From the NCBI RefSeq assembly GCF_056746865.1, contig NZ_CM163382.1: 64,000 nucleotides of DNA, one strand, 5' to 3'. The notes beneath the pieces are model-generated. The model did no database searches. It was not told where the DNA came from and saw only the letters and a program-made list of their open reading frames with translations. The position numbers and the translations under genes were made by a program. Positions within the stretch are counted from its first letter, which is position 1. Each line of letters starts with the position of its first letter. Shown here in pieces: positions 1,905 through 2,218 of the stretch.

Positions 1905-2218
1905 TTGGGGCCAAACTGTCCATATCATAAATAAGTTACGTATTTTTTCTCAAGCATAAAAATATTAAAAAACGACAAAAAGCATCTAACTGTTTGATAT
2001 GTAAATTATTTCTATTGTAAATTAATTTCACATCACCTCCGCTATATGTAAAGCTAACGTTTCTGTGGCTCGACGCATCTTCCTCATTCTTCTCTCCAAA
2101 AACCACCTCATGCAATATAAACATCTATAAATAAAGATAACAATAGAATATTAAGCCAACAAATAAACTGAAAAAGTTTGTCCGCGATGCTTTCCTCTAT
2201 GAGTCAAAATGGCCCCAA
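1905..2218. promoter_or_regulatory. fimS: fimS invertible phase-variation switch: 314 bp bounded by 9-bp inverted repeats TTGGGGCCA (1905-1913) and TGGCCCCAA (2210-2218)
   Basis: Both 9-bp inverted repeats are seen directly in the sequence, spaced exactly 314 bp, between fimE and fimA. This matches the known fim switch. Confidence 0.85.
1923..1953 (-). promoter_or_regulatory. Sigma70-like promoter inside fimS, reading leftward toward fimE (switch apparently in OFF orientation)
   Basis: On the minus strand, TTGAGA (1953-1948) and TATGATA (1929-1923) with an 18-bp spacer, next to the left inverted repeat. These resemble the fimA promoter hexamers as I recall them; their orientation is an inference. 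Confidence 0.45.

Follow-up and report, generated by a model that had tools for sequence, protein, structure and literature searches.

The segment at positions 1905-2218 of the analysed window (the whole stretch of DNA under study, 64 kb in length) is almost certainly the canonical fimS phase-variation switch of E. coli, recorded in the phase-OFF orientation. Its anatomy, its OFF orientation and its reversibility are established here by published orientation assays performed in silico, by comparison with reference genomes and by the occurrence of the exactly flipped form in other E. coli genomes. What we describe is a textbook feature, the fim switch, in the state in which it is most often recorded.

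Structure of the invertible element

The original prediction had recognised in this place a 314-bp fimS element with intact 9-bp inverted repeats, and our analysis confirmed this. The element is sited between intact fimE and fimA and is bounded on the left by TTGGGGCCA and on the right by TGGCCCCAA (Table 1). Both the 314-bp length and the 9-bp repeats match the descriptions of fimS in the literature (PMC9993118, PMC2647292). When the whole 64-kb window was searched, each of the two repeat sequences was found in one copy, and the repeat extends outward imperfectly, giving 77% complementarity over 22 nt.

Perfect 9-bp inverted repeats are not rare locally: this AT-rich region harbours 4 pairs per 531 nt versus a shuffle mean of 1.2, and at least 4 pairs occur in 6.8% of shuffles. 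This is why the significance of the fimS repeats comes from their identity with the published repeats and from their context, not from statistics.

Table 1. Features of the fim switch region in the window (positions are those of the window; strand is given where it applies).
Feature	Position	Strand	Evidence and remarks
fimB, tyrosine recombinase, inverts fimS both ways	180-782	+	200-aa product; NCBIfam NF007370 matched end to end, 458 bits
fimE, tyrosine recombinase biased ON-to-OFF, intact	1260-1856	+	198-aa product; NF007371 matched end to end, 452 bits
fimS invertible element, OFF orientation	1905-2218		BstUI and SnaBI assays in silico; UTI89 colinearity; flipped version in 252 complete genomes
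IRL, left 9-bp inverted repeat	1905-1913		TTGGGGCCA
Presumed PfimA	1924-1953	-	-35 TTGAGA 1953-1948, 18-nt spacer, -10 TATGAT 1929-1924; consensus scan
SnaBI site TACGTA	1937-1942		Used by a published orientation assay; 162+442 is the OFF pattern of PMC4374849
Fis / LRP-2 binding region, promoter-distal end of fimS	2141-2176		FBSFOR2 mutagenesis primer (PMC9993118), its unmutated flanks mapping at 2141 and 2165
BstUI site CGCG	2183-2186		Used by a published orientation assay; 540+188 is the OFF pattern of PMC9993118
IRR, right 9-bp inverted repeat	2210-2218		TGGCCCCAA, exact reverse complement of TTGGGGCCA
fimA, major type 1 fimbrial subunit, cut off from its promoter in the recorded orientation	2338-2886	+	NCBIfam NF011741 FimA, 181.6 bits; fimA in the MG1655 annotation

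The gene order around the element was derived from open reading frames, NCBIfam matches and the MG1655 annotation: the tyrosine recombinase genes fimB and fimE are located directly upstream of fimS, fimA lies beyond it, and the remaining genes of the fim operon come downstream of fimA. Positions 1-3223 of the window, comprising fimB, fimE, fimS and fimA, are identical base for base to the MG1655 chromosome (NC_000913.3, from 4540778), in which fimS occupies 4542682-4542995 in the same orientation as in the window. There is no reason to consider any of the small open reading frames inside fimS a gene, and an Rfam scan of positions 1-4000 matched no family. Of the accessory sites expected in such a switch, for IHF, Lrp and Fis, the Fis / LRP-2 region was located by means of primer sequences.

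Two further elements were seen in this region. A 16-nt inverted repeat with 88% complementarity (1859-1874 / 1923-1938, TAACTTATTGATAATA / TATCATAAATAAGTTA) spans IRL, with an overlap into the presumed -10 hexamer; a relation to the recombinase half-sites or to the IHF site beside IRL is possible. Directly past the fimA stop codon, the MG1655 annotation places the small RNA fimR2 (4543674-4543708), and its sequence is identical in the window (2897-2931, plus strand).

Orientation of the switch

The orientation was called by four anchors independent of the presumed promoter hexamers, and all four indicate OFF. In the assay of the Dorman laboratory, which combines primers OL20/OL4 with BstUI digestion, the OFF orientation yields 539+187 bp and the ON orientation 433+293 bp (PMC9993118). 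Performed in silico, the same assay gives 540+188 for the window as read and 294+434 when positions 1905-2218 are flipped. For primers Inv-1/Inv-2 with SnaBI the published patterns are 440+161 for OFF and 403+198 for ON (PMC4374849), and the in silico fragments are 162+442 for the window as read and 406+198 for the flipped version. In this orientation-specific PCR-restriction check, the OFF fragments appear with the sequence as read, and the ON fragments appear only after flipping. Published HinfI fragment sizes, together with a Hultgren-type assay, were also considered as an orientation test and were dropped, because both orientations fit these numbers when primer sequences are not given.

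Evidence of another kind is provided by the right end of the element. The EMSA primers BSFORBIO, located within fimS, and BSREVBIO, located outside it on the fimA side, produce a 135-bp right-end probe of the phase-OFF switch (PMC9993118). In the window these primers span 2103-2237, exactly 135 bp, and they are convergent only in the recorded orientation. The same publication locates a Fis site at 50 bp from that end of fimS which is distal to the fimA promoter (PMC9993118). Since this site is found at the fimA-side end of the element, the end with the promoter would be the one toward fimE; this placement has support in the literature, and it agrees with the position of the promoter-like hexamers considered below.

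Comparison with a reference of known orientation leads to the same call. The UTI89 reference genome carries fimS in the OFF orientation (PMC6458436), and it is colinear with the window over fimE, fimS and fimA at 98% identity, sharing the repeats and both promoter hexamers. Within fimS the two sequences show a few point differences, and upstream of IRL there is a 1-nt indel.

These data support the suggestion, made originally from the sequence alone, that the sequenced template was phase-OFF. The reference of stated orientation with which the window is colinear is an OFF reference, not an ON one, and the presumed fimA promoter was not located on the plus strand near the right repeat.

Both orientations among E. 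coli genomes

We built the ON version of the switch by reverse-complementing positions 1905-2218, and the RefSeq complete E. coli genomes were searched with a 1201-nt query (1500-2700) in the recorded and in the flipped version. The flanks alone account for 74% of the query, and the orientation is therefore identified where a single place covers 80% of it or more. Any match was obtained in 4729 genomes, among which 4451 have the window orientation, 252 have the flipped one and 26 were left unclassified; the OFF and ON shares among the 4703 classified genomes are thus about 94.6% and 5.4%, respectively. An OFF record is thus what one would expect.

The flipped construct was found as a 100% single-piece match in many real genomes, including DH1, DH5alpha and several MG1655/K-12 derivatives. 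In the phase-ON genomes of E. coli DH1 (NC_017638.1) and DH5alpha (NZ_CP045741.1), the flanks and the element are 100% identical to the window, while the 314 bp are inverted exactly at the 9-bp repeats, so that TTGAGA-18-TATGAT stands on the fimA strand beside IRR. The existence of this exact flipped form in real genomes demonstrates that the 9-bp repeats are the true inversion boundaries. Moreover, both orientations are on record among strains that show no difference over the 1.2 kb tested, the K-12 lineage included, and the same is true for the W3110-type records with fimE::IS1. It may be mentioned that the ON-orientation deposits include strains as common in laboratories as DH1, DH5alpha and some MG1655 derivatives.

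An intact and reversible switch, found in both orientations among strains indistinguishable over 1.2 kb, lends some weight to the reading that the culture was mixed and that only one of the two orientations came through in the assembly or in the clone sequenced, in which case the record says little about the strain. We consider this possible, although rather unlikely: the 94.6% share of OFF among the classified genomes suits a real majority-OFF state and not a random pick. This reading does not conflict with the OFF call on the recorded sequence and limits only the conclusions on phenotype. The assembly records only the majority or the cloned orientation of a reversible switch and is not a proof that the strain cannot express fimbriae.

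Integrity of the recombinase genes

A different explanation would be that the switch is genetically locked OFF, representing a fixed genotype like that of EHEC, in which fimS is mutated, or of Shigella, in which fimB carries a nonsense mutation. Such lineages are present in the literature (PMC4374849, PMC6458436). In the window, however, the element retains all 314 bp and its 9-bp repeats are perfect; its sequence agrees at 100% with that of the functional K-12 switch, and both recombinase genes are full-length, with their family profiles matched end to end. The window fimB and fimE are identical to fimB b4312 and fimE b4313 of MG1655, respectively, and the IS1 insertion known from the W3110-type records is absent from the window fimE. 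We therefore regard a locked switch as very improbable, and a locked-OFF genotype of the EHEC/Shigella kind is excluded as far as the sequence can tell.

With fimB and fimE intact, and the two repeats likewise, no mutation locks the switch, and the OFF record is thus to be seen as a snapshot of the reversible, FimE-biased majority state in ordinary cultures. The switch in the source strain presumably flips normally, and the source culture was probably mostly afimbriate.

Promoter-like site within fimS

The original prediction had also placed the best sigma70-like hexamers of the element on the minus strand beside the left repeat, facing fimE, and in this respect it proved correct. TTGAGA-18-TATGAT lies 10 bp off IRL, is aimed at fimE and matches 10 of the 12 sigma-70 consensus positions, which makes it the best site in 1700-2450 and one tied for best in 1-3000. 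The numbers of promoter-like matches are not above those in shuffled sequences (3 versus 2.3 +/- 1.7 and 9 versus 8.0 +/- 2.4), so that the scan alone cannot establish PfimA, and for this reason the orientation call was not rested on the hexamers.

We presume these hexamers and the associated start site to be those of PfimA on the basis of the consensus, of the Fis site at the promoter-distal end and of the mapping reported by Olsen and Klemm 1994; among the texts searched, none gave the PfimA hexamers or start site as sequence. With this assignment, transcription from PfimA would start near position 1917 on the minus strand, reading toward fimE. No intrinsic terminator was detected in or around fimS within 1700-2450.

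That the orientation is really ON, the promoter having been put at the wrong end by the earlier reader, could draw on the statistically undistinctive promoter scan, but with four independent literature-anchored tests all giving OFF we attach practically no probability to it.

The remaining part of the window

The identity of the first 3223 nt suggested that the whole window might represent MG1655, and this was rejected since over its last 25 kb the window agrees with non-K-12 genomes that have hpa genes. Positions 39001-64000 align colinearly and at 100% identity with genomes that include MS6198, FDAARGOS_497 and ECONIH1. Among the stretches for which they are listed as matches, FDAARGOS_497 is 100% identical and colinear over 14001-39000 as well as over 39001-64000, and 2017C-4173W12 is so over 1500-2700 and 14001-39000.

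The hpa cluster (4-hydroxyphenylacetate catabolism) occupies 56101-64000 on the minus strand after btsT, where MG1655 has tsr. It includes a reductase subunit gene, hpaB, hpaA, hpaX, hpaI, hpaH, an isomerase gene, hpaD and hpaE, the last being cut by the end of the window. The presence of this cluster in the place of the K-12 tsr means that the window is not K-12, despite its K-12-identical fim region.

Two other loci may be noted in this part of the window. One is a gene some 6.3 kb long (approximately 34940-41284, plus strand), which is intact and bears the annotation DEAD/DEAH box helicase in MS6198 and genomes related to it; MG1655 has yjiT and the yjiV pseudogene there. It is followed by the immigration-control region (approximately 41341-52292) with mcrC, mcrB, symE, hsdS, hsdM, hsdR and mrr, according to the annotations of MS6198 and MG1655.

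Proposed mechanism and its meaning

It is known that fimS holds the fimA promoter, and that fimAICDFGH is driven only in the ON orientation (PMC9993118, PMC6458436). FimB inverts fimS in either direction, while FimE acts from ON to OFF (PMC2647292), with a strong bias and with dominance over FimB when both proteins are made (PMC9993118, PMC2647292). In addition, a Rho-dependent terminator in fimS shortens and destabilises the fimE mRNA only when fimS is OFF; with the switch ON, transcripts of fimE run across the element into fimA (PMC2647292).

Applied to the window, this scheme suggests that the 314-bp segment would carry the promoter of fimAICDFGH close to one of its ends, and that FimB (in either direction) or FimE (from ON to OFF) would recombine within both 9-bp repeats, making the segment flip. 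In the recorded orientation the promoter end would stand beside fimE and point leftward, leaving fimA without a promoter and the cell without type 1 fimbriae. With fimS in the OFF orientation, the fimE transcript coming in would also meet a Rho-dependent terminator and would be shortened and destabilised. The place of this terminator in the window, like the silent state of fimA in the source culture, is inferred.

Perhaps, in the OFF state the fimA promoter is active and its transcript passes IRL and enters the 3' end of fimE, whose stop codon ends at 1856, and the antisense transcript together with the Rho-dependent terminator lowers FimE, helping FimB to switch the element ON. We consider this suggestion doubtful, and it is close to published work on the orientational control of fimE.

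The importance of the OFF record is chiefly that of bookkeeping, and no new biological question is opened by it. Taken literally by an annotation pipeline or an expression model, the record shows a promoterless fimA, and with cultures enriched for ON cells read mappers will show an apparent 314-bp inversion. Once it is known that this record is OFF, and that the ON orientation is on record in about 5% of finished E. coli genomes, phase variation will not be mistaken for mutation.

Among the known systems, fimS may be likened, by description, to the hin/hix flagellar switch of Salmonella and to ipuS of UPEC, which likewise consist of a short invertible promoter segment flanked by inverted repeats and provide ON/OFF phase variation. 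Their descriptions also set them apart from fimS: hin is a serine recombinase, unlike those of the fim system, and ipuS has 7-bp repeats and another target gene.
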